Source: Squalus acanthias
Taxonomy: Eukaryota
Assembly: GCA_030390025.1 (NCBI GenBank)
Contig: CM059430.1
Span: 68,138,001 to 68,202,000, forward strand
Reading direction: 5' to 3'
DNA: 64,000 bases
Shown: piece after piece, positions 5,446-44,950 of the stretch
Numbering within the stretch: the first letter of the stretch is position 1
Layout: every line of letters begins with the position of its first letter
The notes under the pieces: model-generated
Database searches by the model: none
The model's input: only the letters and a program-made list of their open reading frames with translations
What the model was told of the DNA's origin: nothing
Position numbers and translations under genes: made by a program

Positions 5446-5473
5446 TCAGTCCGCCTCCCAACACTTAATGCAT
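5446..5473 (-). CDS. Candidate terminal coding exon of gene B (R-CIKCWEAD*)
   Basis: Acceptor ctgaatttcgtttcacag in non-repetitive sequence. A phase-2 join gives 9 residues then TGA. No homology support. Confidence 0.25.
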
Positions 5474-6697
5474 CTGTGAAACGAAATTCAGATCAATACA
5501 GTTTTTATCGCTGATAATCATTTCGTTCTTGATTACGTTTACAGGTCGTCACTTTGCACCAGCAAGAAATTGTTTCTGTGTCTATATGATGGAATTACAA
5601 GAGTTCCATTTAAAACTGTTCAGATATTTCCATCCAGCTTGATAAGATTATTCTGTTACCATAATTTGAACCTGTATATTGTGCAGTCTTAATCAATTCC
5701 GAGCCTTCGTCACATAATAATTAATCTTTTAGCAATGATTTTTTTCTGTCACGAAATTAAATTCAATCATAGTTTACAAACCCGTCTAGAATTACTTATT
5801 ATACATGCATTAATCTGTGTAACTTCTTTTATTAATTTGTATCATGTGTTGTACAATCACTTATGAATTTGTAGTTTAAAGACTATTTCATAGATGAGTA
5901 ATATGCAGTCTAGTGAACTAGAGTTTATTTAGACAACAAAAGATTGCAAAAACGTTTCCAAAAGCTTTCCACTACTGGGCTTTTCCTCGCGTCATGTCTG
6001 GATATGTATTTACCTGATTGATAGATTCATTACCATGATTAAACAGCAACTCTATTATCATTGTCTGATGCAACGACCAGAATGGTAGAAGGTGCACTGG
6101 ATGGACCATGATCTTTTCTTATCTAGCAATTCGCATGTTCCTAAACCATCTTTGCAGCACATCCAGTATCTGGGTCGCTTCGATCAGTTTTCTCTCCTAA
6201 GATGTCCAGGAAATATGATACCACCAGGATTTGAACATCATAATACAAATTGTTTACAACTAGTTGAAGGAAAATCTAAGGCTCTAACGGATTTTGCTTG
6301 AACAGGGTCATTGTAATTAATCTACTAATGTGTGAGTAAAGTTTTGATTTTCAGCTTTTAAAGTTTTACAACAGTAAATAGGCATCATAGTAATTTAAAT
6401 TTCCACTAAAATAGAGACTACATACCAAACTTTCTGAATGTTAGTTTTGCAAAGGATCATAAGCATCACGCAACTGTAAAAGTAGAGTTCGTTTTGATCG
6501 ATATTTAAAGTTACTAAACGATACTAGGGGGATATCCCATTTTGATGTATGCAAATTTGGTAAGTATCAATCTATTAGGAAATACGCAATACGGAGCAAA
6601 ACAGGTTTATTTACTCATACTAAAATTCAGTCCAATGCATTAATATATTCAAAGATATATCAACCATGACCATAGTACCGTTTATATCAGATTAATT

Positions 6698-7638
6698 GGC
6701 CCAAAAATTAGTCTTAGTACGCGAGAGTACGCACTGTGTACTCTCGCGTATTCTGTCTCCAATTGCCGGTTTTCTGCATGCACTGCGCATGCGCTGAAAA
6801 CCGGCACTTGGTGAACTCAAAAGGGGGCGGTTCCTAAGTGAACCGCGTGCGCGCACGCAGTGCACTTAGTGCTTTGAACGCGCAGGTAAGCATGGAAGAT
6901 TTTGCACATAAAGAAAGGAGACGTAAGACCCACTTTTAACAAGGTAAGTGGTTAATTAAGTATTATTTTAAAAAATTTTCAACAGGTATATCTTTTTTAG
7001 AGACTTTAAAGAAAGGTAAGTTTATTTTTATAACTTTTAAAAAGATTTTAAATTTTTTCAAAAATTTAATTTTTTGTTTAAAGTGGTTAATTTATTTAAC
7101 TATACTTATTTTATTAATGTGATGGTTTTTTTTAAATTTAATTTAGGTTTAGCTGTTCTTTTGGGTATAGATTCATAGCTTTGACAGCCCTTGCTCTCAA
7201 AACTATGAATGAAAGATGGTGTGCTGCCATTGGCTCTAACTTAATCACGTGATCCCATAGCTCGCACGATTTAAGTGCGTCTGTGGGATACGCACACACT
7301 GCACAGCAGCAGCCTTGAAACTAAAGTTCGTGCGAGCTATGAATGAAAAGGCAGGCGCGCAGTGAGATATCACGGGGAAGCCTTAACCCCGCAGGAAGAC
7401 TCCATCTTTAATTTCTGGGCCTATGAATGAAAGATGGTGTGCTGCCACTGACTCTAACTGAATCACGTGATCCCAGAGCTCGCACGAACTAACTCTGTCT
7501 CTGGGATATGCACACACTGCACAGCTGCAGCCTTGAAACTAAAGTTCGTGTGAGCTCGGAGGGAAAGGTAGGTGCGCAGTGAGATATCGCGGGGAAGCCT
7601 TACCCCCGCAGGAAGGCTCCGTCTTTAATTTCTGGGCC
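6698..7638 (+). mobile_element. ~740-bp MITE copy 1 (TIR GGCCCAAAAATT...AATTTCTGGGCC) with duplicated 3' ~217 bp; TSD ATT
   Basis: TIRs present, ATT on both sides. 7422-7638 repeats 7204-7421. Confidence 0.85.
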
Positions 7639-7652
7639 ATTACCTATATAAT

Positions 7653-8389
7653 GGGCCAAAAATTCATCCCGGTGTGCGAGAGTAGCCACTGCGTACTCTC
7701 GCGTATTCCCTCTGCAATTGCCGTTTTTCTGCATGCCCTGCGCATGCGCTGAAAACTGGCAATTGCTCTTTTGAAAAGGGGGCGGTTCCTCGGTGCATCG
7801 CGTGCGCGCTACAGGCTGCGTGCACGCTGTGCACTTCATGCTTTGGACGCGCAGGTAAGTACTGAAGATTTTAGAAATGGAAAAAGGAGGAGTAAGACCC
7901 ACTTTTAACAAGGTAAGTAGTGAATTAAGTATTTTTTGAATTTTTTTTAACAGGTATATCTTTTTTAGAGACTTTAAAGACAGGTAAGTTTATTTTTATA
8001 ACTTTTTAAAAGATTTTAAATTTTTTCAAAAATTTAATTTTTTATTTAAATTGGTTAATTTATTTAACTATACTTATTTTATTAATGTGATGGTTTTTTT
8101 TTAAATTTAATTGAGGTTTAGCTGTTCTTTTGGGTATAGATTCATAGCTTTGACAGCCCTTGCTCTCAAAACTATGAATGAAAGATGGTGTGCTGCCATT
8201 GGCTCTAACTGAATCACGTGATCCCAGAGCTCGCACGAACTAACTCTGTCTCTGGGATATGCACACACTGCACAGCTGCAGCCTTGAAACTAAAGTTCGT
8301 GTGAGCTCGGAGGGAAAGGTAGGTGCGCAATGAGATATCGCGGGGAAGCCTTACCCCCGCAGGAAGGCTCCGTCTTTAATTTCTGTGTC
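7653..8389 (+). mobile_element. MITE copy 2
   Basis: Same TIRs and internal sequence. 5' half is nearly identical to the copy at 49559; 3' end matches 7422-7638. Confidence 0.85.
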
Positions 8390-8468
8390 ATTACCTATAT
8401 AATATGTTCTTTTGGTAAAATATGTAAATAAAAAATATATAATGATCTGAGTAGATCATAGTATTCAA

Positions 8469-9391: not shown

Positions 9392-9500
9392 CTTTCAAAG
9401 CAGTTGATCCAGAAATGATCAGCAATGATTATCGTCAGCATCAAAATGACCAACACGCTCAATACCAAGCGAACAACCATAACTGTCTTGTCAAGTGAAA
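9392..9500 (-). CDS. Transmembrane exon with charged Arg (VSLDKTVMVVRLVLSVLVILMLTIIIADHFWINCFER); probable exon 4 of gene B
   Basis: Acceptor tttcttatttatttcctag, open in phase 1, donor AG|GTAAGA (read-through gives AGG TAA). Not in the ORF track. Assignment to gene B rather than only to the decayed duplicate is inferred. Confidence 0.8.
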
Positions 9501-10816: not shown

Positions 10817-11124
10817 CCATGTTAGAAACATCAACAATTAAGGGATTTTAGCTCGAGCCGTGAGTGTGAGGTGAGACACTTGACAAGTATAAACAGCTCC
10901 GCTCCGGAGGGGCTGCGTCTCCTTCTGAAGGCTGGAAATTTCATACAGTCCATTCATGTTCTACTTTGTGCTTTTCGCTATGCCGATCAAAATCTCAATT
11001 CCATCTTTATACCAAGTGAGGTTGAGAGTAGCCGGGTAAAACTGAACCGTTTTTCACACGAGATTCAGAGCATAGGAGTTTAATTCAGGTACTTCGGAGA
11101 AAATCTTCAGCTGAGTAGGCGGAA
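10817..11124 (-). pseudogene. Decayed duplicate: C1 pseudo-exon
   Basis: Highly similar to 14736-15044. Acceptor AG>GG, first Cys TGT>TGA, a further TAG, and net 1 nt shorter (frameshift near the 3' end). Confidence 0.92.
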
Positions 11125-13434: not shown

Positions 13435-13468
13435 CAGAGATTCACTCAGAACTGAGCGTCAATAGCAA
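13435..13468 (-). pseudogene. Decayed duplicate: V exon reduced to 34 nt by internal deletion, with in-frame TGA
   Basis: Starts TTGCTATTGACGCTCAGTTC, identical to the gene B V exon start. CGA has become TGA, and the sequence then joins directly to the V-exon end TCTCTG|GTAAGTGAAACTG. Acceptor and donor are both intact. Confidence 0.85.
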
Positions 13469-13592
13469 CTGTTAGGAAACAAAACGGTAATTTTAAATAA
13501 AGCTCGAAGTAGGAATGAGGGAGATACATTTAACAGGGTATAAAAAGGGGGAGAGGGAGAGCCGAGAAACGCAGAAAAAGAGCAGAAGATAA

Positions 13593-13647
13593 CTGTGTAA
13601 ATAATCGCGAGGACCCATATGACCAACAGTACAGAGCATCCAGACAT
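13593..13647 (-). pseudogene. Decayed duplicate: leader exon MSGCSVLLVIWVLAIIYT with mutated donor
   Basis: 55-nt leader homologous to A and B. The phase-1 donor reads G|TTATCT instead of G|GT. Confidence 0.75.
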
Positions 13648-14735
13648 ATTGAACAATACAAATCGCCCTCTTTGCTGTGAATAACAACAATCATTTGGGA
13701 AAAAATGGTTTGTGCATAATCTGTCATAAAATGACACGCAATATCAAAAGGCAGAATCGGAGCTGGCAAATGAGGCGCTAATTGAAGTGCGTAGGGTGAT
13801 GTTTCCCGAAGCCCCATTCGGTCGGAAGTGCACCCGGTATTCCATTCCGCCGACCCAGTAACTCCACAGCTCATCCAAATGAATTACCGAGTCAGAAACA
13901 AGTATTTACTAATATTGCGCTTCGGCTGAGAACCGTTCAGCTCTTGGGCGCAAGTGAATATGAGGATGAAAACTGGATGCTGTTGCAGCAATTATTATGC
14001 TGTAGCAAATTAATTTAATCAAATGATTTTATGACTAAAGCGACACTTTACGACACTGCAGTAATGACGTGGTGTGGCCTGCAATTGTAATAATGTGCTT
14101 TCCTGTCTACAGCTGGCCATAGGATCAAATATTCACCTCTAACCTGTTTTCACAGAAAGGTTGAATGGTCACTGGCAATGTTAGCAGAGGTCTGGGACTA
14201 GAAAGTAAGAATATATCCCGGGGAATATCGAGGCTGATGCAGAAAACTAAATACTTTCAGAAAGTCAGATCGCATAAAGTGGAGACAAAACATAAAAAAT
14301 GTATATTAATAAGTGACAATCATCCTACCGCAGCCACCAGGCTGAATTTCACATTCCATGCCATCAAAAGATTGATAATCGCTGATATTTTAGCTGTTTC
14401 CGGAAATAAATTGTTTTAAAAAATTGCGTACAATTTCTGCATTGAAAGTATAGTTGCCACATACCACATATTTAATGACAAAATGCAGTATTGTCAAATT
14501 AGCCACGGCAGTGGATTTATGCTCCGTGTGGAGTCAAAATGAAGCAGTGAGCGACTATCCGCTGAAAGGAATGTCACTCCGCTTCTCTCGGAGTCGGGTC
14601 CTGACTGCGGGTCTACACTACAGGTTTGCCTATGGTGCTAATTGAAGTGCATTCCTACCGACGCCAAACTTGCAGTGTAAATGCACACTTATTTAACTAC
14701 AGTTCATGGCGTTCGTGAGAATGTCGGCACGTTAC

Positions 14736-15044
14736 CTATTTTAGAAATCGGAACAATGAATCTCTCACTAGCTGGATCCGTCAGTGTCAGGTGAGACACT
14801 TGACAAGTATAAACAGTCCCGCTCCGGACGGGCTGTGTCTCCTTCAACAGGCTGGAAACTTCATACAGTCCGTTCATGTTCAAATTTGTACTTGTCTCTA
14901 TGCCGATCACAATCTCAATTCCATCTTTATACCAAGTGAGGTTGAGAGTCCCCGGATAAAACTCATCCGTTTTACACACGAGATTCAGAGCAGAGGAGTT
15001 TAATTCAGGTACTTTGGAGAAAATCGTCAGCGGAGTTGGCGGAA
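14736..15044 (-). CDS. Gene B exon 3: Ig C1-set domain
   Basis: Acceptor tttatttctacag, donor G|GTAACG, 309 nt. VPPTPL...LVC...FYP..L.LTWYKDG...NGLYEVSS.L...YTCQVSHLTL. Confidence 0.92.
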
Positions 15045-16070
15045 CTGTAGAAATAAAACAGGTCAGAAATAGCATTTGGGCTGTTTTGTTCTTGAGTTTA
15101 CAAATTTATCTTCTCTTTATTTGGAGCCTTTAAATAGGAAGTCATTAATGTATCTTAATGTTCAATGACTGCCGCGCAATTTTTATTCATTACATACAAA
15201 TTAATTAACTAAAATATTTCGGAAATAATACAATGTTTTACTTCTATGGCAGTTTCTAGCAATATATTGCAGGGCTATGGGGAAAGAGCAGGGGATTGGG
15301 CCAATCAGATTGCTCTTTCAAAGTGCCGGCTCAGGCACGATGGGCAAAATGGTCTCATTCTGTGCTGTATCATTCTATAACTTTTGAATTTTGATTTTTA
15401 TCAATAAACCGCCAATTTAAATATTTTAAAGCATCAGAAAAATAGGTTAGTATGTAATAGGACGAAACATCGTGCACAGCGAACCTTGAAATCTAATCTT
15501 GTCCCCCTCCAATAAAATCGATTGTTATTTCAAACTACTAACAACTCTAGTTTTGTGTCAGTTAGAAAGTTTGTGTGAAATGCACAAATTCTTATTCGGC
15601 AACATTTTTTTTTAAAGTGAAGAGATTGGTTTTGCAGAATTTGAAACAGGTCATCATCTAAAAAGGGTGAATTTGTAGTTTGGGAACATAACTATATTAA
15701 AAACAAAACATTGTAGACCATATAGTGATTTTCAGTCTGAGCAAGTGCGAGTTACCTGGATAATGCTGTGTTCGTCCCGAACCATAACACGGGGATACCG
15801 CACTGATAATATGGAAGGTGTATTGGAATTCACATTAACAAGTCGTAATTTAAAGCGCTCGGTGTGTTTTTTAAAATTTGTTTGTATGCATACTTCATAT
15901 TTGATGAAGAGATTTAAACAAACGAGACAACGCAGCATTATCATTACAGAATGTTGTCGCCCGCGTTTTTCGTCAAAATCTCAGTAACATTTACTGACGG
16001 GTAAAAAGCACAATCGTCTAATTTTATATTGTATTCTTATATAAATCTGGAAATAGATATGAAAACTATT

Positions 16071-16167
16071 CTGACGAAAGGTCATCGACCTGAAACGTTA
16101 ACTCTCTTTCTCTCTCCACGGATGCTGCCTGGCCTGCTGAGTTTTTCCAGCGTTTTCTGTTGTTATT
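16071..16167 (+). mobile_element. 97-bp Penelope-type mini-insert beginning with a hammerhead core; 13-bp TSD
   Basis: CTGACGA-a-aggtc atc gacct-GAAA-cgtt-aac. TATGAAAACTATT is duplicated at 16058-16070 and 16168-16180. Confidence 0.78.
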
Positions 16168-16560
16168 TATGAAAACTATTGGTGCTCAAGATAAATTAGG
16201 AGCAGATGTTAGAACTGTATAGGGCGCATTAAAGTAAATCAAGGCGTGTCGATGTAAGAGCTGGAGAAACGACTTAAAATGATTATAGCAACACTGTTAA
16301 CATGCGTTTGGAGCAAACTTCTTCTTTCACACTTTGGAATCAATAACGTTACACAATGAAACGAAGATTCCGGTGACTATAATACACAGTATAAAAGGGA
16401 ATACATATACATCAAGGGGACGCTTCAGTTAAAATATGCTTCAACATTAAGTAGCAAGGATTGAAAGTGTAGTTTGGTGCAGCATTTTTAGTTTAATATT
16501 CTAACAAGAACACCACACATCTCTGTGTTGCAGCTCATTCGGCTCCACAGTTTCACTTAC

Positions 16561-16881
16561 CGGAGACTTTGATCGTTGAGCCTGTTCCGTTTACAATCCT
16601 GCTTCCCAGGTTTCTCACTCCGCAGTAATAGACCCCAGAGTCCCACGCACTGATATTCAGGAGATGAAAGGAGGCTCCCCCTTGTTTAAAAAGGAGAAAT
16701 GTTTTCCTGTTGTCGGAGGCTGTTTGAAGAAATTTACTTTCGCCAAGTTTCCACCAATAAACACTCACATCAGAGTTATCTTGAAAAATGGGGAATGTGC
16801 AATAGAAGGTGATGTTTGAACCCACGAGCAAGCTCTTGCTTTCAGGAGCCTGGGAGACTCGGAACTGAGCGTCAATAGCAA
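16561..16881 (-). CDS. Gene B exon 2: Ig V-set domain with germline-joined J-like G strand
   Basis: Acceptor tttcctgacag, donor G|GTAAGT, 321 nt. Motifs VSQAP, TFYC, VYWWK, DSGVYYC and VNGTGSTIKV. About 45% identical to the gene A V domain by manual ungapped alignment. Confidence 0.93.
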
Positions 16882-16970
16882 CTGTCAGGAAACACAATGA
16901 TAATTATAAATAAAACATGAAAATGGAATGCACGGGGATTTATGAAGAGAAAAAGAACAATAGAAAATAC

Positions 16971-17025
16971 CTGTGCACATAATCCCCAGGAGCCGCATGG
17001 ACTGAAGTACCCCGACTATAAACAT
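16971..17025 (-). CDS. Gene B (activating-type VJ-C1 IgSF receptor) exon 1: signal peptide MFIVGVLQSMRLLGIMCT
   Basis: ATG at 17025, 55 nt, donor G|GTATTT. An 89-nt intron separates it from the V exon. Homologous to the gene A leader (VLQ...LG.M.T). Confidence 0.85.
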
Positions 17026-28558: not shown

Positions 28559-31500
28559 GTGACATGACGAGTCGCCTTATAAACGGAAAAAGCTGGAACA
28601 AATATTAGACAGAAATATCGAGTTACAGGCAGAAAATACCAGACTAGGTGAGGAGTTAGAAGATGCAAGGGGGGCTCTGAGGGAGTTAGACTAGTGCCAA
28701 ACCATTGCCTCCCCCAAAGCAGACCACGCATCGTGTTTAGCAAAAATCCAACAGCTTCAGGCACATATCGGACAACAGCGGGCAGTAGTGGTAGCTGTCT
28801 CCAAAATCACACCAAGACATCCAGTCCCTTGTTGGGACAGCATAGCTGAGGACCCCACTCCCTCTGCTCCCCCTCCACCGTGCAATGATGGCGAGGCAAA
28901 CAAAGCAAACAAGGCAATACCAGTGTGTGTCGTCAGCTGGGCCAATGCTGCCCGTCAGCCTCAGCACCAGAATTACGAGGAGGTGGGAGGTGTCCAACCA
29001 TCCTATTCCACTAACGACGAGGGGGAAATGTTCACCACAACCACGCATAGCCTCCTTACCGCTGTTGAGGTTCGGGCTCTAAAGGATGACCTAGGGACGA
29101 TAGACATGAACACCAGACCCCTTGACCTCAGGCAGCGGTGGAGGATTTTTAAGTTTACTCATCCAGAACTAGAAGGGGGCAACCTTAAACAGGTCCTCCT
29201 GGCTGTGTGTTCCTCAGATTTAAAACAAGAGATGGATCAGGATGTTCTGGAGGCGGGTGCGATACATGATATTGAGATGGACCTATGTAGAACATTAGGG
29301 GAGGAGCGCATCGACTTCCAACAACTCTTGGCTAGTATCAAGCAGGTCCCTCCCGAATGCCTGAATGCCTTCGCGCATAGCGTCCATGACATTTTCCATT
29401 GCAGTAGGGATGGCAGAGGTGACTACCTTAACTATCCGGGCCTCAAAACCCTCTTTTTCAACGGCCTCCACCCATTAATCCGTAGCCCGCTGGGCGTTTA
29501 CATCTCCAAAGACAAACCCTGGGAACAGCTGTGCCACCATTCCGGGACTGGTTAGCAGCAGACAGGTGCCAATATTCCCAGAATACAAACTAAATTTAAA
29601 ATAGCAGCCGTCGAAGACCAACTACTAGGCCAGAAATCAGGGCCGTCTAAAACCCCTGCACCAGAGAAGGGTGCTCCGGTACGCTGTTACCTAGGCCAAT
29701 ATGCCCATTACTGCCGAATTCCTCTGAGACAAATTGGTCCAGACTCGATGGAGCAGAGGTTGGAGAGAATGGAGGCAGCGATAGGGGCCATGCAGATTAG
29801 CCAAGGGGCTCGACCGGTTGCCGCGGTGCATCAACAACCGAGCAAATGGCAGATCGTTCACCTCCCCTGTGACTCCTGCAGGCTTCTCAGGGAGAGATGA
29901 CTTCCCCTCTCCGATACGCTAGTGCACAGAGACCGTTAGTCCGCACTGTTGATCCTGGAGGCCATCAACAATTAACGTTAGTTGGCTCTGGTTCGTCAGC
30001 CATCATCATTCAGGATCCCCACCCCGCCCCTACGAAAGGAGTGCCCCAAGTTTTATCGGGCTCTGACAATTCAACTCAGGCAACTATACACGGATCCGTT
30101 CGCTTCGAGCTAGACCTGGACGGGGTTTGAGTCACGGTCCAGTCTCCCATTTATATGGCCATGCATAATGAGCAGGGACTACTGGGAAGTGATGTGCTCA
30201 AAATTTATCGAGCAGTAATTGATTATGCCAACAATTGTATCTGGTGGAACCTTAAAAACCGACCCCCTACTCTGATGTCTAGCGTGCACTCGATATTCGC
30301 AATTAAATATGATGACCCCGAGGTACAGGGTATCCTAGAGTCAGTGCCGGGTTTATTCGCAAGCCATTAACATGATTGGGCCAACATGACTGAACCTGAA
30401 GAAATTAACGAACCAGTACATGCTCCCGTAAAGCAGTACTCCTACCCAGCCGAGAGTATGCCAGATATTCGAGCCACCAGTGAAGTCGGGATTAAGTTGC
30501 TGTGAGAATTTAAAAGGCGAAAAAAAAATAAACTTAAAGTTGAAACGGACACTGAAACGTTCAGCTTCTGTGCCGAGAAAAATAAAACACAAGATTGCTG
30601 AGTGATAGGAACCTTAAAAGAAATGCTGGAATTTCAGTTTGTGTGAAAGTTTCCCTGACTATGAATGTTTCGAAGCTACAAGCTGAGGGAAGCTCCGCCT
30701 CTTTTTCCTTTTGTGTAGAATATATAACGTTTGTTTAAATGTGAAACAACTATTTTTTCTCCAGTCATATTTAGTACTTTTACAATCATTTAGAAAGTCA
30801 TCTGAAGAAAGGACAGTAAGAAATATCATGTAATTTGCTGCTTTCTGCAAGCAGCTGCTTTTGTGTTTTGTTTTATCTGTGTTGTATCGTGTTTAGTTGA
30901 TAAAATATTGATCTGAATTAAATTGGAATTATTGAAGCAAACGAACCTATTGAATTGTCAAAACACAACTGTCCTTTTCCGATCAGGAAAGTTTTTTTTT
31001 AATTTAGGTGAAGTGACGCATTTGTGTGCGTCTGACAATATTTGCTCCATCTTCTGACAAACATGCCAAGTAGTTAACCCTTTCTGCTAACAACTTTTTT
31101 TTTCACCACACAGCAACTTTTGTATTGCTGAATGAAATTTAAAGATATTGAACATTATTAATTTTTAAGTTTCTTAATTGTCATTGAATATTTCCCAACA
31201 GTGACAGAAGGACTATTATGATTTGACGAATTAACCCCTTGAGCGCTTAAGCAGTGCCACAATGGAACTAATTGTGGCACTTCTGTCTCGAATGTTAAAA
31301 CACCATTTTAAACCACCTAGCCTGGGAATCACTTGTTTCTGAAATTGGAGCTGATAAGGTAAGGTACAAGAAGGGGAAATCTACCTGAAGTTGAAGGGGA
31401 TAATTAAATTTTCATTATAATAAACTGGTTGAGAGCAGTCTAGGTGGTCCTGCCAATTGCTGTGATCAAGGAAGAAAGTTTGTGGGGAAATAAAATTGAA

Positions 31501-34500: not shown

Positions 34501-35864
34501 CGCAATCACGCCACAGATCCCCTGTAGAGGGCAGCACACTGAAAAGGATCTCAAGTAACCTTAAGTTGCCTCTAAAAATCACATAAAAAGTCTTTGTACA
34601 GCTGTAACCGCAATGAATGGCGAGCTCCCTTCTTTCCCCTCTTACCACAATATCCGGGACATTGTCTTTCTATACTTTATTGTTGGGAATGGGTAGATAT
34701 TTTATGCATTGAGGTCACTTGTGACCATCTTCCATTGTATCTATTCCTCTCACTTACGGGCCCTGCGATGGTCATTGCCAAACGCACCTCTCTCCATCAC
34801 CACCAGCGCCCCACCCACACCCCCGCCGCAGGCTGTCCATGATCAACAGATGCATCAAGGAAACTCGGGTCTCTTTATCCTCTCTCACATGTGCCGAAGA
34901 TTAGTTTTCTAAGAATCTTTGTGCCTTTACACGTATCTGTTTATGTGGTGTCTGTGCCACTGCCGTTTGAAGCATCTGCAAGCCATTAAATTCCGCAACA
35001 GGTTACCCCGCCCCCACCCCCAAAGCTTTATCGACCTTGGTCACTGAATAACAGCGACGACGCTTCACAGTATGGGTGAAACATGGGAAAGATCGGCATT
35101 CATGATGATATTTTGATAGTACAATCACAGACCATTGATAGGATAGTCGTTCCTAGTCTAGCAGCTACTGTTACCAATCAACAAATGAAAATGTGGCACA
35201 GAAAAACGTCATAAACGGCCGTATTCAACGCGACACATGGTTTCTGTTACGTTTGCATCAGCCTGCCAATCCATCACGGGAGATCTGGTGATAACTCAAT
35301 AAAATTATGGGCGGCAGTGTTTTCAATCTATCAGAATTTCCTACAGCATTGCCCGAAACATCTCTCATGTCTGATCTGAAATGGTGAAGGACACTGAGGG
35401 AGAACTTTGGCGCAATCCTCACAGTCTGCAGCCGTATTTTCGCCAGACGATCAATTGAAACCTAGCACAAGCGAAGTAACGGCCAGGATCCGCCAATCTC
35501 GGCAGATACCGCCGGTCTCCCGTCAGGGAACTCTGCCGAAATTCTATGCGCAGAGCACTGAAATATGGAATATTCCAGGACGAGTGCATGACCTTTTTAT
35601 CCAACTGTCCTTAGAGTAGGAGGTCCCGCGGCGAGGCCGCTCCATCTGTCTGTGCAGAAACTTAAAATTGAGAACTGGCGCCTCTTTTGGTGCATGCAGA
35701 AATGTTTCAGCAAATCTAACCAAAGGGACAAAAATACATGTTCTGAACACATAGACAGGATGTCACGCTTCATCGTGACGTATTCAATTCTCCGGCTCTT
35801 CAACTATCTTACAAACCATCAGCCAGTTCACGGTCTGTCGCTCCGAGTGATCAATTGGTTCAGA

Positions 35865-35919
35865 ATGTCGGCGAGTGCTGTACTTCAGTGCCTCTCTGTT
35901 CTGGGATTCATGTTCACAG
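35865..35919 (+). CDS. Gene A (inhibitory VJ-C1 IgSF receptor) exon 1: signal peptide MSASAVLQCLSVLGFMFT-G
   Basis: ATG at 35865, 18 mostly hydrophobic codons plus 1 nt, then phase-1 donor G|GTACAT. Same 55-nt length as, and similar sequence to, the gene B leader. Confidence 0.85.
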
Positions 35920-36091
35920 GTACATGTTGTTTCTATACCTTGCTTTCTCGCTAAAACGCATCGCTGCTTATCATCAGTTTGATACAACATGTTTAATTGT
36001 CCTTTACACACATTTCCTGACTCACTGAACCTCGCTGTTTTTTCTCCTGTAATATTCTCACTAATTCGGTTTTGATTTTCTTTTCCGATAG

Positions 36092-36412
36092 GCTCCTGCG
36101 AAACCTCGGTCAAAGTGAATCAGCTCCCTGAAAGCCCGAGCGGAATCAAGGGTACAAGCGTTTCCTTTCATTGCTCGATTCCCTTCTTTCAAGACGGACC
36201 AGAGGTGAAGGTATACTGGTGGAAACAGGGTGATAATAAATATCTAAGCACAGGACCTGATGACAGAAAAGTAACTGGTTCCAAAACTAAATTCAGCGGC
36301 TTCCTTCAGATAATCAATATAAGTGTCCAGGACTCGGGAGTATATTACTGCACTGTCGCCCATCGAGGCCGAATAGTTGGAAACGGAACGGGATCCAATT
36401 TAACTGTCTGTG
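36092..36412 (+). CDS. Gene A exon 2: Ig V-set domain with germline-joined J-like G strand
   Basis: Acceptor ttttcttttccgatag, donor G|GTAAGT, phase 1/1, 321 nt. Motifs VNQLP, SFHC, VYWWK, DSGVYYC and GNGTGSNLTV. Confidence 0.93.
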
Positions 36413-36461
36413 GTAAGTATAAAAGAAGCGGTGAATTAGATCCATGTAACTGTATTATTTC

Positions 36462-37195
36462 AAAAATGAGAAGTCGCACAACACCAGGTTATAGTCCAAC
36501 ATATTTATTTAAAATTACAAGCTTTCGGAGCTGTCGCCCCTTCCTCAGGTAAAGTTACAATGAGTGAATCTACAATATTTCACAGTATATAAACACAGAA
36601 ACTGCAGAGATACAATCTTTCAGGGAAGGTGCCCTTACATCAAAGACACTCCAAGAGCACAGCCAAGACAATGAGATGTGTCACAGGGGGTCCAACGTTT
36701 CAAATCCTGCTGTCTGCAGTTTTTTTTGTTTGTTTGGTTTTTTTTGTGTTCTTTTTTAAACTGGAAAGACAGACAACAATGTCGAGTCACGTTCTGTAGC
36801 GTGACATGAACCCGATATCCCTATTGAGGCCGTCCTCATGGGTGCAGAACTTGGCTATCAGTTTCTGCTCGATGATTTTGCGTTGTTGTGTGTCTCGAAG
36901 GCCGCCTTAGACAACGCTAACCCGCAGATCCGAGGCTGAATGTCCTTGACTGCTGAAGTGTTCCCCGACTGGGAGGTGACAATCCTGCCTGGCGATTGTT
37001 GCGCAGTGTCCGTTCATACGTTGTCTCAGTGTCTGCATGGTCTCGCCGATGTACCATGCTCTGGGGCATCCTTTCCTGCAACGGCGACAGCTCCGAAAGC
37101 TTGTAATTTTAAATAAATCTGTTGGACTATAACCTGGTGTTGTGCGACTTCTCATTTTTGTCCACCCCAGTCCAACGCCGGCATCTCCGCATCAT
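36462..37195 (-). mobile_element. 5'-truncated Penelope element (GIY-YIG endonuclease C-terminus) with inverted pseudo-LTRs, in gene A intron 2
   Basis: RKGCPRAWYIGETMQTLRQRMNGH...LPVGEHFS. Inverted terminal arms at 36462-36538 and 37083-37159. Confidence 0.85.
36515..36552 (-). ncRNA. Minimal type I hammerhead ribozyme motif in Penelope pLTR
   Basis: Minus strand reads uuac-CUGAGGA-a-ggggc gaca gcucc-GAAA-gcuu-guaa: catalytic core boxes, stem I, stem II and a palindromic minimal stem III. Confidence 0.7.
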
Positions 37196-38137
37196 GTATT
37201 ATTTCACACTTCGAAGAAATTCTCGATTCTGCTTGGTAGGATTCACAAAGCAACTTAAATTCCAGTCGTTTTATGTGTATATATTCAAATTCCACTGTTG
37301 ACTGCTATTCGTTTCATGCTAATATGTATTGCAATATTTCAGCAATATTAATCAAGACGAGCATCATCGGATTTATCCCAAGTACACAGTAATCATGTAT
37401 ACAACAAGCGTTTGAGGTTATAATTGCAGTGTCTTTTAAGGATGTGTATAATGGATAGGAGTGGGTATCATCCAATGTAAGCACCGATCTTACCCTATTT
37501 GTTGGTTTATTTTGTCTGCCTTGGTTACGGAAGGCTGACTATTTCTATTGGGATTTAGATTCGCAAATTTAGAATTTAATGATCTATATGTTAAGATCTT
37601 TGAAAGCCAAATTGCTAATGGCTAAATTCCGCACTCTGTAGCTTAACCCTCGGACCCCATATTTTAATCATCATTGCAGCCTCCAGCAAATAACATTTCG
37701 TACCGGACCTTCCTGCCATAGCCCCTCTATCTTCGGTAAATTATACTTCCTCATCAGATGTTATGCTCAACTGGATGGAATTGGTCCGCAGATGTACCGC
37801 AAAAGAAGCGACAATGAATCGGCAGCCCGATATACACCACACTCAATGTTCTTTAACATTAGAAAAGAAAATCGGCGAGCAGTAAAAGGGCGGCCTATTC
37901 GCTGCAATCCGGTTTTCGCCGGGGGAAAGCAGTTAAAATTACCGCCGATATAACGTTGACATTTATGAAGATGCCGTTTATGATGTAGGTACCAATAGCG
38001 CACAGTGAACACAAGGCCCCCACCACTACCCCAACCCGCCGCCCACATTGTGCTGTCAGGAATGGGCTGGAAAAAAGACGATGGGTTGGTAATCTTGACT
38101 GATGTCCATGTAACATTCTTTTCCTCCATTTTTCTAG

Positions 38138-38449
38138 TTCCGCCAACTCCACTGAAAATTGTCTCTCAGGAATCTGAAAAGGAATCTACTGCGTCTCTGA
38201 CTCTACTGTGCACAACATCTCCCTTTTACCCGCAGAATATCAGCTTCACTTGGTATAAGGATGGAACCAAAATTACAACAAGGATAAATAACATTAATCA
38301 ACCAAACACCGATGGACTATATGAAGCTTCCAGCCGGTTGGAAGAGACGAAAGCTGTCCAGACGGGGACCGTTTATACCTGCATGGTGTCTCACAGTACC
38401 CTCAAAATTTCAGCCACAGCCACTCACATTGTCACCTACCAGAACACAG
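38138..38449 (+). CDS. Gene A exon 3: Ig C1-set domain
   Basis: Acceptor tttttctag, donor G|GTAATA, 312 nt, phase 1/1. C1 hallmarks LLC...FYP..I.FTWYKDG...NTDGLY...S.L...YTCMVSHSTL. Confidence 0.93.
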
Positions 38450-38464
38450 GTAATATTTTAGATA

Positions 38465-39850
38465 GAATCACAGAATCTTGCAGCACACAAAGAGATTATT
38501 AGGCCCGGCGTGCCTGTGCGGGCTCTTTGAAAGAGCAGTCCAATTTAATGCCCACACCAGCTTTTTCCCCATAACTCTGCAAAGTAGTCCTCTTCCAGTA
38601 CACGTCCAATTGCCTTTTGAAAATTCCTGCGGAAACTGGTTCCACCAACCTTTCTGATAATGCGTTCTGGATCCGAACAATACTTCGTGAGAAAATAATT
38701 CTCCTTAATTCGCCTCATGTTTTTAACCAATAATTTTAAGTCTATGACTTATGGTTACCGACTCATTTTCCAGTGGAAACAGTTTCTCCCTACTTGCTCC
38801 ATCAAAGCCTCTCATAATTTTGAATTTCTTTATTAGGTATCCCCTTAATCTTCCATGCTCTACTGTGAATAATTCCAGCTTCTCCAATCTCTCTACAGAA
38901 CTGCAGGCCCTCATCACTGTTATCATCCTGCTAAACCTCCTCTTTACCCTCTCCAAGAACTTGACATCCTTCCTAAATTGTGGTGCACAGAAATGGAAAG
39001 AGAACTCCAGCTGAGGACTAGCCAGTGATTTGTCAATTATTAGCATGACTTCCTTGTTTTTGTATTCACTGCCTCTATTTACAAATTCAATCATACCATG
39101 TGCTTAATTAATCACCTTATCATCTTGCCCTTCCACCTTCAAAGATTTGTCAATATGCACCCCGGGTTCCCCTGCCTCTGTAAGCCCCATCAAAATAGAA
39201 CAATTTCGATTATACTGCCTCTCCATGTTGTTTCACCCAATGTGCACACTTCACTTGCCCGCATTAAATTGATCCTGACTTGTGTCTGCGCGTTTCACCA
39301 CTCCATCTATGTCCTGCTGAAATCTGCTAAAATCTTCCTCACTATTTACTACGTTGCCAAGTTTTGCATCATCTACAAACTTCAAAATTGTATTCCCTGT
39401 ATCCAACTCCTGGTCATTGAGGCATATCAACTAAAGCATTGGTTTTAAGATCTATCCATGGGGAACCCTACTGCATAATTCTCTCCAGTCAGAAAAGGCA
39501 TTCTTTCACCACTACACTCTACCTCCTATCACCTGGCCAATTAAGTACCCAAATTACCAACATCCTTAAAATCCTATGCGCCTCTATTGCCGAATAAGTC
39601 TATTGTGAGTTACTTTATTAAATGACTTTTTAAAGTCCATATATCTTCTCAACGACCTTCATCATACTTCTCTGTTAATTCATCAAAGAACTCAGTCAGG
39701 TTAATCAGCCATGATTTTCCTTCAACAAATCCATGTTGGTTGTCCCTTATTAAGCCATGCTTCTGCGAGTCAGAATTAATGTTGTCCTTACCAAGGGTCT
39801 CGAGTAATTTTCCCACCACTAACGTTAGACTTACTAGACTGTAGTTAATA
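38465..39850 (-). mobile_element. Degenerate CR1 fragment in gene A intron 3
   Basis: NRGSEYKNKEVML, ERVKRRFSRMI and RLRGYLI motifs; CR1 tail ends ~15 nt from the C1 donor. Confidence 0.88.
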
Positions 39851-40580
39851 GGTTAATCTATCGCAATAATCGTGCAAGTAAACGGTTTGCTGTGATCCAT
39901 CCCCCCATCATTTGTTTACTTTTACTCAGATACAATTATCCGCGGAGTTCGGCCAGGTGTTGTGCTCCATGGTCTCTGCAACTGCTGTTCGACATCTTCT
40001 GCCCCAATGGAAGTCATGGTCGAGGTGTGGAACTGACGTGTGGGACAGTATCCCGCAGTATCTCGCAGCCTGTGGTTCTAAGTCGCAACATATCGGAGCT
40101 GGACAGCTGTCTCCAGCATTCCTTAAATCGTGTTGTAATCTTCAGCAAGCTGTAAATTTAGCAAGTGCCGTCTTTAGCCCTCTTATGAAACAACAAACTA
40201 AACATGATCGAACTGAATTCAGTGGAATTAAAAATGGGGAGTAATGTAAATCTATCTGCCGATTGGCTATCGCCCATTTTACAGTAATGCACAATGTCAG
40301 AATTACCCCCTGATATCGCAGTCTTATTTCAACAAGAAACAAGGATGAAATCACAATTGAGTTTCAGCCAAGATAAAGTAAAAGTAACTATCCTTTAAGC
40401 ATGTAAAATTAAACAAAGACGAACATTTTTATTTTGTTTCATAAAATTGTACCTTAATGCAAAAAATAAATGGTAAAAATTATTTAAAATATTTTAATGT
40501 TTCTAATCTTTTAAGTCATTGTCTCATTGAATTGAACAGTGTAGGGATTCATATTGATATATTTCATCTCAATCTTGAAG

Positions 40581-40691
40581 GTGATGAGATCTTCCATTGC
40601 TTGCGGATTTCTGCAAGTGCAGGGGTCGGGTTGGTAGTCCTGGTGCTGGTTGTCATCATTGGGAAGCAATGTGTCTCAAAGAAAAATAAAG
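40581..40691 (+). CDS. Gene A exon 4: stalk and transmembrane (GDEIFHCLRISASAGVGLVVLVLVVIIGKQCVSKKNK)
   Basis: Acceptor tcttgaag, donor G|GTAAGA, 111 nt in phase. Hydrophobic run followed by basic stop-transfer residues. Confidence 0.88.
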
Positions 40692-41319
40692 GTAAGAAAT
40701 AATTTAGACTTTTACTAAAGTAAGAACAACTTTCAAAGAGAGAGTGAGCGAGAACTTCATGTTACATGTAGAGAGAATGTTAGTTGATTGCAACTAAAAG
40801 GTTCAAAGAACAGTTACTCTGTCTCACAGGAACAGGGGCGTTTGCTGAACGGGTTTTTAACTATATGGGACGCTCCACAGTCACCCCAGTCTGCTTCATT
40901 TACAAAAATTGCAGCACCTGATGTATTTAATATGGGTTTCATCACGACCGTGTAGCGATAGATTCGAATTTCTGAAATGTGGTCGAATTTTCCGAGTTAC
41001 CCCAGCCAGCGGCAGCGACTGGCACTCCGCGCGATCTTTATTGGAAAATCTCTTTTCATTGTTTGCCAATTTACGCCCATTCGGGACAAGGAACGTAGAA
41101 TTATGGGAAGTGACCCCGCGATTTTCCAATCAGGATCGCGCAGCGTCCGAAGCCCCACCGGCATCTGAAAAATCCATTGTCAAACACAGTTCGGAAACCA
41201 ACAAATCCTTAAAATGTGATATCTAGATCATTTTATACCTTACATTGAATCTACCCGAAGTGTCTTTCCAGGCTGAGTAAATGCCTCATTTTAAAGTCAT
41301 GAATTTCATTCATTACCAG

Positions 41320-41363
41320 GAGCGCAGAACGATGGCGAAAGATCCGACTATCGCGAACAGCCG
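41320..41363 (+). CDS. Gene A exon 5: short cytoplasmic exon (GAQNDGERSDYREQP)
   Basis: Acceptor ttcattcattaccag, donor CCG|GTATGT. The 44 nt convert phase 1 to phase 0, exactly what puts the ITIM exon in frame. Confidence 0.7.
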
Positions 41364-41749
41364 GTATGTGTGCATGATTCATTCTAATATATTTCAGATA
41401 TTAACATATACATAACAGTAGTAATCTATTTAAAGCAATAATTTGTCACGTTATAATCTATTGCTCTCAAGATTCATACAAAAATAGCGCAGATTGAATT
41501 CAGCGCTTATGGGAAAGATCTTCGTCAATAGGTCAGAGGCAGCTGAATTGTAAATGTCATCTGCTGATGGCGAATAAACATATTGCTTAAAAGTTACCAT
41601 CAACCGTATTTAATAATAAAGAAGTTGTTTTTTGCCTCCTGGACACAGCGGACAGTATGTTGGCGGTAGTTCATAATGCTGTGCCCATTAACTAACACTG
41701 AACTTAATCCAGAGTACGCGAGTACAAATCCTATCATTGTAGTTTGAGA

Positions 41750-42475
41750 TTTTAAGAACATCTTTCCTCAGATGAGGCGACCAAAACTGTACACAGTACT
41801 CGAGGTGTGGTCTCACCAGTGCCCTGTACAGCTGCAGCAAGGTATCCCTGTTCCTGTATTCCAACCCTTTTGCTATGAAGGCCAGCATACCGTTTGCCTT
41901 CTTGACCGCCTGTTGCACCTGCATGCTCGCCTTCAGTGACTGGTGTACAAGAACACCCAGGTCTCTCTGTACTTCCCCCTCTCCCAATTTATTGCCATTT
42001 AAATAATAATTTGCCCTCCCGTTCCTGCACCCAAGGTGGATAACTTCGCACTTGTCCACATTATAGTGCATCTGCCATTTATCCGCCCAATCACCCAGTC
42101 TGTCCAAATCGCTCTGGAGCTTCCTGGTCTCCTCCTCTGAGCCCACCCCCCCTCCTAGTTTAGTGTCGTCTGCAAATTTGGAAATGCTGCATTCGACTCC
42201 CTGATCCAGGTCATTAATATAAATTGTGAACAGCTGGGGACCCAGGACAGATCCCTGTGGTACCCCACTTGTTACTGCCTGCCATTCAGAAAATGAGCCG
42301 TTTATTCCAACTCTCTGTTTTCTATCTGACAGCCAGTTCTCTATCCACGTCAATACTTTCCCCTTTATCCCATGAGCTTCAATTTTCCATGCTAATCTTT
42401 TATGTGGGACCTTATCGAAGGCCTTTTGGAAGTCCAGGTACACCACATCTACTGGCTCTCCCCCATCTATTTTAC
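41750..42475 (-). mobile_element. Young CR1 RT fragment in gene A intron 5
   Basis: Open frame with YLDFQKAFDKVPH, GVPQGSVLGP and KFADDTK. Confidence 0.93.
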
Positions 42476-44782
42476 CAGAATTCAGGTTTCAAAATCTGTA
42501 AATAAATGATGTTATCTGAAGCTGTGGGATTGTCTTAAAACCCCAACTGGTTCACTAACATCAGTCAGGGAATGAAACCTGCCATTCTTAACCGGTCTGC
42601 ACCGTATGTGACTCCAGTCCACACCAAGGTGCGTGACTCTCAATTTCCCCCTGAAGTCTCCTCTGAATCTCACCACCAGCAACTTCTGAGGGAAAACAGG
42701 GCTCGGCAATAAACGCCGACCTTGCCAGCGATGCCCACATCTCGAGAATTAATACAAATTCCGGCACAATATCACAGGCTGGCGGTGCCAGTTTAGCGAT
42801 TTGTTGTTCCCGGAATTTTGGGTGAATTTGCGGAAATGTTAAGAAGACGTGGAGACAGGTGACGATTAAGCGGCATTCCCTTCAGTCGCCTCATTCTCCC
42901 GTCATAATATCCATCTGAATTTGGAAAACCTCCAATGTCAACGCCCAACCGTCACCTCCTTGGGCGGAATTTGCTGCTTCACCGCACAGGCCGGGAGACC
43001 AAGCAAGCACGGAGATGCTTATCGGAAAATTGAGGGTTATTTTCCCGCCATCTCCCACGTATTGAATCAATGGACAGAAAAGAGTTGGCATTAATTCGAT
43101 GTGTTCCAATATATACCGCCTGTTGCCTGTGATTACCGATCCCGGGAAGCGTCCTGCGATAATTCCAGCCCATCAAAAGAGTTATTCCAACCAAATCTGA
43201 TTCTTTCAGTGCATATGTTTTTCCTGATATCTGTTCGACATTTGTTTTCCATTTGTATCCCTAGTTCTAATTCATCTCCGTGATTGAGTCATCAGGGTCT
43301 AAATTAACGTGAAAGACAGATAGACATTGATGTAGATAGAAATATATAAATATAGATATATATATAGTTATCGATATAGATATAGATATTGTGACATTGT
43401 GGATGAATTAATAGCTGGACATAAGATTCTGTGTGCAGTCCAGAAGCTCAATGACAAGCTTTAATATAATCTCTTGTAGTCCATGTTCTGATCCTTGATT
43501 CCAGAATTCTATTCGTTGTTTACTTTTCTGGACATTGAAAGTGACCTGACTGCTGTTAACCCCAGACCCCTTTCTGTCTCATTGTGCTAATTCAATTCCA
43601 TTCATTGTATAACTACGATACACATTTACCATTATGCCTAAAGCTCAATTTTATAAAGGAGTTAAATGGTTTTACTATTTTTTTGGTGCAACGAAAGTGT
43701 AATTTCAAGTATGGAAACCTTGCCAGATGGAGGTTATTTCAACTAGACTACTCCTATCAATCGACTGCAAGGATGAACTTTGATCCCTTATTTTTCTTTA
43801 CTTTCTTAAAATGTAAATTTCGATGGATTTCCGTAACTTCGGCGGGACACCCGTGGAAGTCCCAGACAAACAACGTAAAGGGCGCGTTCAACCTATTACA
43901 CTGTTTCTATGGGGCTTCTGGTGGTCACCCAGCAAAGTGAGACCAGGAGACCGGTTGTAGCTCCGCGCATTTTGGGGGTAGATTTTCGTCTTTACCGTCT
44001 GGGCGCTAAGCAATGCATGGGTGCAGCGCAGAAAGAGAAATCTGGTGGGGAGGATCGCCCGTCCCGAGGGAATTTCTTTGCATTCGTTTCAATGGTAGGA
44101 CAATGCGCGGGTTCTGGTGCCAGCAGCGGCTCCGCAAGATTTTGCAATCCATGCTGAGCCCTGACGATGCTTCAGGTCTAGGCGGTAAAGAAGAACCCTC
44201 CTTTCACCCTCCCCCAAACTGTTCGAATATTTGTGATAATGCGACGGATTCCGCCTGCTGGGCACTGACGGCGCGGACACGGAGCACAAACAAGGAGGTT
44301 GTGGCAGCAGTGACTGATATTCCATCCGTTCATTTAATTGATGGACTCTGGACCTGCTATTTTCGGGCCTGCTTGCATCGTTCTGCGCAGGGAGCGCCCA
44401 AACGTGGTATCTGCCCTAACACCATAACAAGATATATTTTTGCCGTTCCTTCCATGCAGGGAGCTGCTGATGTGATGGCGCCTTATGCCGCATTAGATCA
44501 GAACAAGTCCGGAAAGGTCCAAGACCAAAGCATCAATAGAGGACAGTGTATGCACAGGTAAGGGCTGAGGAACAGAACAAAGAGTCACAGATTACCTGTA
44601 ATTAACGGGCATGCAGGATAGTGTAAGCAAGAACTTGAATTGTACTATGGTAATCTTTTATATTTAATTTAAATTTAAATCCTCGCTAATTCTGCGAGGC
44701 TCCAGCTATTCCAATGAATGTGCTAAAACATTAAATAACTGCAATATCGAAGTAATTATATTCCCAATAATTGATTTCACAG

Positions 44783-44950
44783 ACCAAGCAACGGGTGCCT
44801 GATAATAAGCTGACCTACGCTGCTCTAGACATGACAGGCTTCAAGAAAACATCAAAGCCTAATTTTAAGGATAAGAGCACGGAGTATGCTCAGCTACAGA
44901 TGAAAAATCAAAGAACAGACGTTATTTACACGGAACGAAAAGCCAAGTAA
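44783..44950 (+). CDS. Gene A exon 6: ITIM/ITSM-like cytoplasmic exon (TKQRVPDNKLTYAALDMTGFKKTSKPNFKDKSTEYAQLQMKNQRTDVIYTERKAK*)
   Basis: Acceptor tgatttcacag, 56 open codons to TAA at 44948-44950. LTYAAL fits the ITIM consensus (I/L/V/S)xYxx(L/V); TEYAQL is ITSM-like. Not in the ORF track. Confidence 0.88.
   Translation, partial: TKQRVPDNKLTYAALDMTGFKKTSKPNFKDKSTEYAQLQMKNQRTDVIYTERKAK

Follow-up and report, generated by a model that had tools for sequence, protein, structure and literature searches.

The question raised by this locus is whether a short membrane-spanning exon belongs to a genuine receptor gene and, if so, which signalling partner such an anchor would recruit. The window, i.e., the whole stretch of DNA analyzed, covers 64,000 nucleotides of the Squalus acanthias genome (C6:68.14–68.20 Mb of a 3.7 Gb genome), and the closest protein relatives were from sharks. 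The exon (9392–9500, 109 nt) lies on the minus strand between canonical AG/GT splice sites (acceptor ..CCTAG, donor AAG/GTAAG), is entered in phase 1 and left in phase 2, and is the genuine transmembrane (TM) exon of gene B, a leader–VJ–C1–TM gene. The first-pass annotation had placed an Arg near the extracellular end of the anchor and an acidic residue together with Trp at the cytoplasmic end, and this arrangement was confirmed: in the top-scoring hydropathy windows of 19, 21, or 23 residues, the Arg occupies position 4, 5, or 6, and 17 residues further on comes an Asp, followed by His-Phe-Trp. The pattern of Arg, 16 hydrophobic residues, and Asp/Glu was found at a single site in the six frames of the window, namely this exon (mean of 0.05 in 40 shuffles). 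The core contains no Lys, position −3 to the Arg is Met and not the Asn of the NxxR motif, and the apparent stop after the TM segment is part of the splice donor. The exon showed 94.5% identity to the paralog at 75.35 Mb, with 84% in the flanking introns, and comparison with three paralogs gave synonymous to non-synonymous codon ratios of 4:2, 5:1, and 5:1. A PDB sequence search with the TM peptide returned no match.

The leader, V, C1, TM, and tail exons of gene B, all five with canonical sites, form an open frame of 273 codons for a type I protein of 273 residues. The leader exon (16971–17025, minus strand, as for all gene B features) is of the activating-lineage type. It is followed by an unsplit VJ-type V exon (16561–16881; Pfam V-set, E 4.5e-7) and a C1-set exon with canonical splice sites (14736–15044; Pfam C1-set, E 2.8e-13), both of which are open and of the inhibitory-twin type. 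Between this intact C1 and the TM exon lies a broken duplicate unit, absent from the earlier annotation, which consists of a second leader of inhibitory type with its donor GT changed to TT (13593–13647), a 34-nt remnant of a V exon (13435–13468), and a C1 exon that belonged to the original activating gene and is now dead (10817–11124; acceptor CGG, stops, and a 1-nt loss). A V-C1-C1 reading of gene B was rejected as the second C1 is dead. Head to head with gene B lies gene A (35860–44950, plus strand), comprising leader, V, C1, a neutral TM (about 40583–40691), and tail exons. The middle tail exon of gene A (44460–44557) is one base shorter than in the paralog L110 and carries a new TAG; its inclusion in the transcript would leave the last Tyr-motif exon out of frame. 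At 28695–30367 on the plus strand there are long open frames with features like those of retroelements, and many LINE-type reverse-transcriptase fragments are scattered across the window.

The cytoplasmic tail had been expected to be about 6–15 residues long and devoid of Tyr. The donor of the TM exon joins, in frame and in phase 2, a last coding exon at 5446–5473 (minus strand), which completes an Arg and adds eight residues (CIKCWEAD) and a stop. The spliced tail thus has 14 residues after the Trp and the form read through the donor has six, within the expected range, and Tyr is absent from both. An equivalent of the last exon is present in two of three paralogs, and the RefSeq model P0002 of Heterodontus francisci has the same anchor and the same last exon, with a matching C-terminus. 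Because neither tail form contains Tyr, the spliced ITIM-bearing exon that the first-pass annotation had regarded as counter-evidence is not seen in gene B. A downstream ITIM exon was likewise rejected on the profile search, which gave no match within 6.4 kb past the TM exon, and none was assigned to gene B in the genome tail-exon search. The short tail contains three Cys within eight residues (5446–5473 and 9392–9420, minus strand), conserved in Heterodontus, and palmitoylation of this Cys-rich stretch is possible from its composition. The TM–tail intron harbors two tandem copies of a ∼740-nt repeat (window positions 6697–8400), absent at the same position in three paralogs.

Four close copies of the TM exon exist: gene B and those at 75.47, 75.35, and 75.15 Mb. 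The 75.47 Mb copy repeats the layout of gene B but has a C1 donor shifted out of phase by one base, the 75.35 Mb copy is a simple intact gene in whose TM an Asp adjoins the Arg, and the 75.15 Mb copy is broken. The ectodomain of gene B is shared with twins at 74.83 and 67.43 Mb, in which the TM is of the neutral type and is followed by Tyr-motif tail exons. Each twin agrees with gene B at 101 of 107 V residues, and the agreement in C1 is 94/104 and 93/104 residues, respectively (V 94% and C1 90% identity for the 74.83 Mb twin). Gene B and the 74.83 Mb twin therefore present the near-identical ectodomains with opposite TM and tail types by which paired receptors are recognized. Informative sites in the 5′UTR, leader, and intron of gene B were activating-like in 74 cases and inhibitory-like in 2. 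The corresponding counts were 4 and 26 in the V exon, 3 and 32 in the next intron, 11 and 31 in C1, 4 and 38 past C1, and 31 and 9 in the dead C1; in three short bins of intron sequence next to the C1 exons, the sites were evenly divided (14:16 just before C1). The inhibitory-like part corresponds to an insert (13444–16916, minus strand) derived from a sister gene of the ITIM type in circularly permuted order: it begins with V, an intron, C1, and another intron, continues with ∼60 nt that immediately precede the TM exon in the sister, and closes with sequence from upstream of the sister's leader, this leader itself, and the start of V. The same junction is present in the 75.47 Mb copy and is hence not a one-off assembly artefact. 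Judged from these sites, gene B is a mosaic, in which an activating-lineage 5′ region and TM enclose the V-C1 of an ITIM sister.

The V-C1 of gene B would have been gained by insertion of the circularly permuted sister piece with a crossover near the V start, either through integration of a circular piece at that point or through equivalent template switching; a tandem duplication followed by unequal crossover would give the same pattern. In primate paired Siglecs, activating KIR, and Ly49, the activating member keeps an ectodomain nearly identical to that of its inhibitory twin via recombination or conversion. The exchange in gene B differs from these in having left a visible circularly permuted insert and a displaced C1.

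An alternative reading keeps the activating type for the anchor but takes the gene B copy to be dead, or to yield no more than a V-C1 protein that is truncated or secreted, with the simple 75.35 Mb gene as the working member. The 34-nt remnant keeps the V exon's own AG/GT sites intact and has an in-frame TGA, so that its inclusion as a mini-exon would end the protein at residue 236; the out-of-phase C1 donor of the 75.47 Mb sister mosaic, the broken 75.15 Mb copy, and the frequency of broken genes in the C6 cluster also favor loss of function. These points are opposed by the five open exons with canonical sites and by the identity of V, C1, and TM to their closest counterparts (94–97%), which exceeds that of the adjoining introns (81–87%) and the dead C1 (90%). 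The 5:1 synonymous excess in the TM exon was moreover obtained against the 75.47 Mb copy, which split from gene B after the insertion. The C1 comparison with the twin (synonymous to non-synonymous 4:10) gave no clear purifying signal. A search for RNA data containing V-C1 listed none, and three same-species contig sets, which covered mainly an intronic repeat of the 75.35 Mb paralog with exon traces only and no exon–exon joint, were no evidence either way. Very short exons of the size of the 34-nt mini-exon are often skipped, which also speaks against a dead or secreted product. On balance, loss of a working gene B is regarded as the less likely reading, though a real risk, and an intact activating receptor is preferred.

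The anchor recurs in a large family. Of 150 scored candidates, the V exon search matched 122, almost all of them at C6 57.5–76.9 Mb, a cluster with more than 100 V exons, and the Tyr-motif tail exon search gave 60 matches out of 78. Of 113 C6 loci kept, 108 were examined (the five left out all had a tail match), and a TM exon was found in 92. The Arg-x16-[D/E/N] anchor, with N at +17 allowed by the search pattern, was present in 18 of these 92 TM exons, distributed over 8 subgroups that are related and not independent. The Arg is invariant among the 18 by definition, and Ile+8 (18/18), Asp+17 (15/18, with one Glu and two Asn), and His+18 (14/18) recur across the subgroups. The 67.43 Mb twin was excluded from the 18, its pattern having arisen by substitution and frameshift in a neutral-type exon. 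In this twin (L015), Thr is replaced by Arg where the TM begins and 1 nt is lost where it ends; the two changes together create the Arg-x16-Asp spacing and put the tail out of frame, which may represent a fresh inhibitory-to-activating conversion or an assembly error. A Tyr-motif tail exon was detected at none of the 18 Arg-anchor loci (5–17 kb examined) vs. 42 of the 74 others, a weak test since 32 of those 74 also have no detected tail exon.

The TM exons of the Arg-anchor genes group together and their V domains do not. In a quick tree of 87 rows, a single branch separates the 18 TM exons from the others (SH-aLRT 87, unstarred), and the V domains of 16 of these genes required 10 changes on an 84-row tree, on which a single clade was rejected (p-AU 1.4e-5). 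Seven of the 16 V domains have a Tyr-tailed partner at 87–100% V identity, and four have none above 54%. At the level of individual loci, the V proteins of L060 (Arg-anchor) and L125 (Tyr-tailed), 1.4 Mb apart, are 100% identical over the 99 residues extracted, and the L032/L109 pair is 93% identical. Other charged anchors were also seen in the cluster. L036, L037, L039–L041, and L043–L046 make up a further charged-TM subgroup that arose from the neutral type, with Arg, often a nearby Asp, and seemingly degenerate tail exons. L061 and L064 have a TM Arg in a different TM type, and L061, which has a Tyr-motif tail exon, could by its sequence be a dual-function receptor. L077, L082, L084, L087, and L089 combine gene-A-type ectodomains with another Arg-bearing TM with a basic end, no tail exon being detected at these loci.

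A wide search found the anchor in 6 of 71 TM-bearing relatives, belonging to six shark species; the modelled tails of three of these six gave a Tyr-motif match. In the comparison with the SIRP domain layout, six relatives had one C1 each. The automatic RefSeq names of the relatives include tapasin-like, Ig lambda-like, MHC II beta-like, and SHPS1-like. For the Heptranchias ITIM relative P0001, the AlphaFold model (pLDDT 78.6) matched only generic V/C1 folds (Fab light chains, MHC II, and a B7-H6 entry) with tied Z scores of 14–15.6, which allows no family assignment, and PDB sequence searches with the gene B V and with P0002 likewise gave generic Ig matches.

The position of the Arg could also mean that it merely snorkels at the outer face of the membrane, in which case gene B would be an adaptor-free decoy or adhesion molecule comparable to SIRP-gamma, with the Cys-rich tail as an anchor. 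A hydropathy window placing the Arg outside is only modestly worse than the best one, as the 19 residues from just after the Arg are still hydrophobic (KD 2.5), and both the Asp next to the Arg in the 75.35 Mb paralog and the three tail Cys would fit a molecule of this kind. Against such a molecule, the outer-face Arg with the acidic inner end is retained in 18 exons spread over 8 subgroups and also occurs in six further shark species, and an acidic C-terminal end is a noted feature of FcR-gamma-coupled NxxR anchors (PMC6557307). An adaptor-free molecule is accordingly thought rather improbable, and an anchor that engages an adaptor is favored.

The genome contains two exons above the Pfam TCR_zetazeta cut-off, both containing a Cys in the TM and having Asp as residue 6 of the helix, which, from sequence and the motifs known for these adaptors, we take to be zeta-like and FcR-gamma-like. 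The ITAM family search gave 0 of 61 candidates, and the DAP10 search one sub-threshold match containing a stop. The Arg of gene B, at position 4–6 in the outer part of the helix, is in register with the Asp of both adaptor exons of the same genome. In CD89, FcR-gamma is bound by an Arg close to the upper end of the TM, and the same is assumed for NKp30 and NKp46 (PMC13107469). According to the same source, a centrally placed Lys is common to every known DAP12 partner, and NKG2D pairs with DAP10 via a mid-membrane Arg (PMC13107469). Coupling of gene B to DAP12 or DAP10, as in SIRP-beta1 or NKG2D, would fit the use of Arg with DAP10 and the resemblance of the ITIM-twin tail motifs to SIRP-alpha tails (33% identity, E 6e-5 in a three-sequence comparison); the central Lys of DAP12 partners, the mid-membrane setting of the NKG2D Arg, and the register with the gamma/zeta-like Asp make it very improbable. 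The contrast with the central Lys of SIRP-beta1, drawn in the first-pass annotation, was upheld by the bat SIRP-beta1-like P0160, in which Lys is at position 9–10.

Gene B is therefore likely to be the activating partner in a receptor pair and is predicted to signal through an FcR-gamma or CD3-zeta dimer bound via the Arg, a reading to which we assign a probability of roughly 0.6. The Arg would pair with the two adaptor Asp residues as for CD89 and NKp46, and with the Arg set against the adaptor Asp, the Asp+17 of gene B may make a second contact with adaptor basic residues at +16/+18. Besides adaptor binding, we infer correct splicing, in which the leftover mini-exon and dead C1 would be skipped. 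Since its V-C1 appears to come from an ITIM sister, gene B and the ITIM twin would recognize an identical or similar ligand and respond to it in opposite ways. One Xenopus NxxR receptor depends on FcR-gamma to be expressed at the surface and another does not (PMC2413239), and FcR-gamma-coupled NxxR receptors often reach the surface without the adaptor (PMC6557307). Adaptor-independent surface expression would thus not disprove FcR-gamma/zeta coupling, contrary to what the first-pass annotation had proposed.

Among known receptor systems, gene B resembles in its anchor the NxxR-type module of CD89/FcalphaRI, NKp46, GPVI, LILRA2, OSCAR, and the Xenopus XFL TM1, in which the Arg is near the N-terminal TM end, the C-terminal end is acidic, the tail is very short, and Arg-anchor genes are intermingled with neutral-TM, Tyr-tailed genes (PMC2413239 and PMC6557307). 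It differs from this module in lacking the Asn at −3, found in 2 of the 18 family members, and in its VJ + C1 ectodomain, which replaces LRC/FcR-type domains; moreover, its tail is split over two exons, unlike that of XFL, described as being in one exon with TM1. Likeness to the SIRP family is seen in the VJ-type V and C1-set domains, the long Tyr-motif tails of inhibitory members, the short-tailed charged-TM twins, and the SHPS1-like RefSeq names of several relatives. Gene B departs from SIRP in having one live C1 and not two, and from SIRP-beta1 in its outer Arg, and its V is only 28–29% identical to SIRP V. SIRP genes have NSFL1C and PDYN as neighbors, and in S. acanthias, SEP-domain and opioid-precursor matches, which are domain matches and not named genes, were found only on C8 and C11 and none on C6. 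The statement that gene B is not a simple SIRP-beta equivalent probably holds for adaptor chemistry and locus; its logic, that of a short-tailed twin of an ITIM receptor, is much like that of SIRP-beta1.

NKp30 (NCR3) is MHC-linked in sharks, and several subtypes have reportedly been described in a study of shark NCR3. None of 49 MHC class I matches fell on C6, many being on unplaced contigs. Like NKp30, gene B has an unsplit V whose end is J-like and of the GxG type, together with an Arg in the TM, which in NKp30 serves zeta/gamma (PMC6514059 and PMC11599192); it is unlike NKp30, which has one Ig domain, in having V + C1 in frame and ITIM twins. The single-exon VJ followed by C1 and the split leader are also features of PRARP, other VJ-C1 non-rearranging genes, and UrIg (PMC10751288 and PMC12227049). 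The family differs from PRARP, compared by description only, and UrIg in its more than 100 copies and paired signalling, and C6 gave no MHC-I-like match and, in the CD3-like marker search, no CD3-like match. The literature search found no paper describing a shark VJ-C1 paired family, a prior description being possible, and the one file covered of the elephant shark supplement (PMC3964593) gave 0 matches.

The Arg/adaptor mechanism itself is textbook knowledge, and the function of gene B is predicted from sequence; what is described here is a known mechanism on a new scaffold, to which the mosaic origin and the family-wide discordance between TM module and ectodomain are the additions. It bears on the age of the Arg/FcR-gamma module, which would either be older than bony fish or have emerged a second time on a new ectodomain. 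Little has been described of the variable paired receptors of cartilaginous fish, and the genes of the C6 cluster carry misleading automatic names. A cluster of more than 100 members with matched activating and inhibitory pairs offers concrete constructs for the study of shark innate recognition. We tentatively suggest, as a broader view held with less than even confidence, that sharks may possess an extensive system of paired receptors, as yet unnamed, whose VJ-C1 ectodomains are TCR/Ig-like and non-rearranging and in which an ancient Arg-x16-Asp activating module has repeatedly been fitted with the ectodomains of ITIM twins, in gene B via a circular DNA intermediate that is still visible. 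If so, this would be a candidate for the missing NK/myeloid receptor complex of sharks and would place FcR-gamma/zeta-coupled paired recognition by antigen-receptor-like domains at the base of jawed vertebrates.
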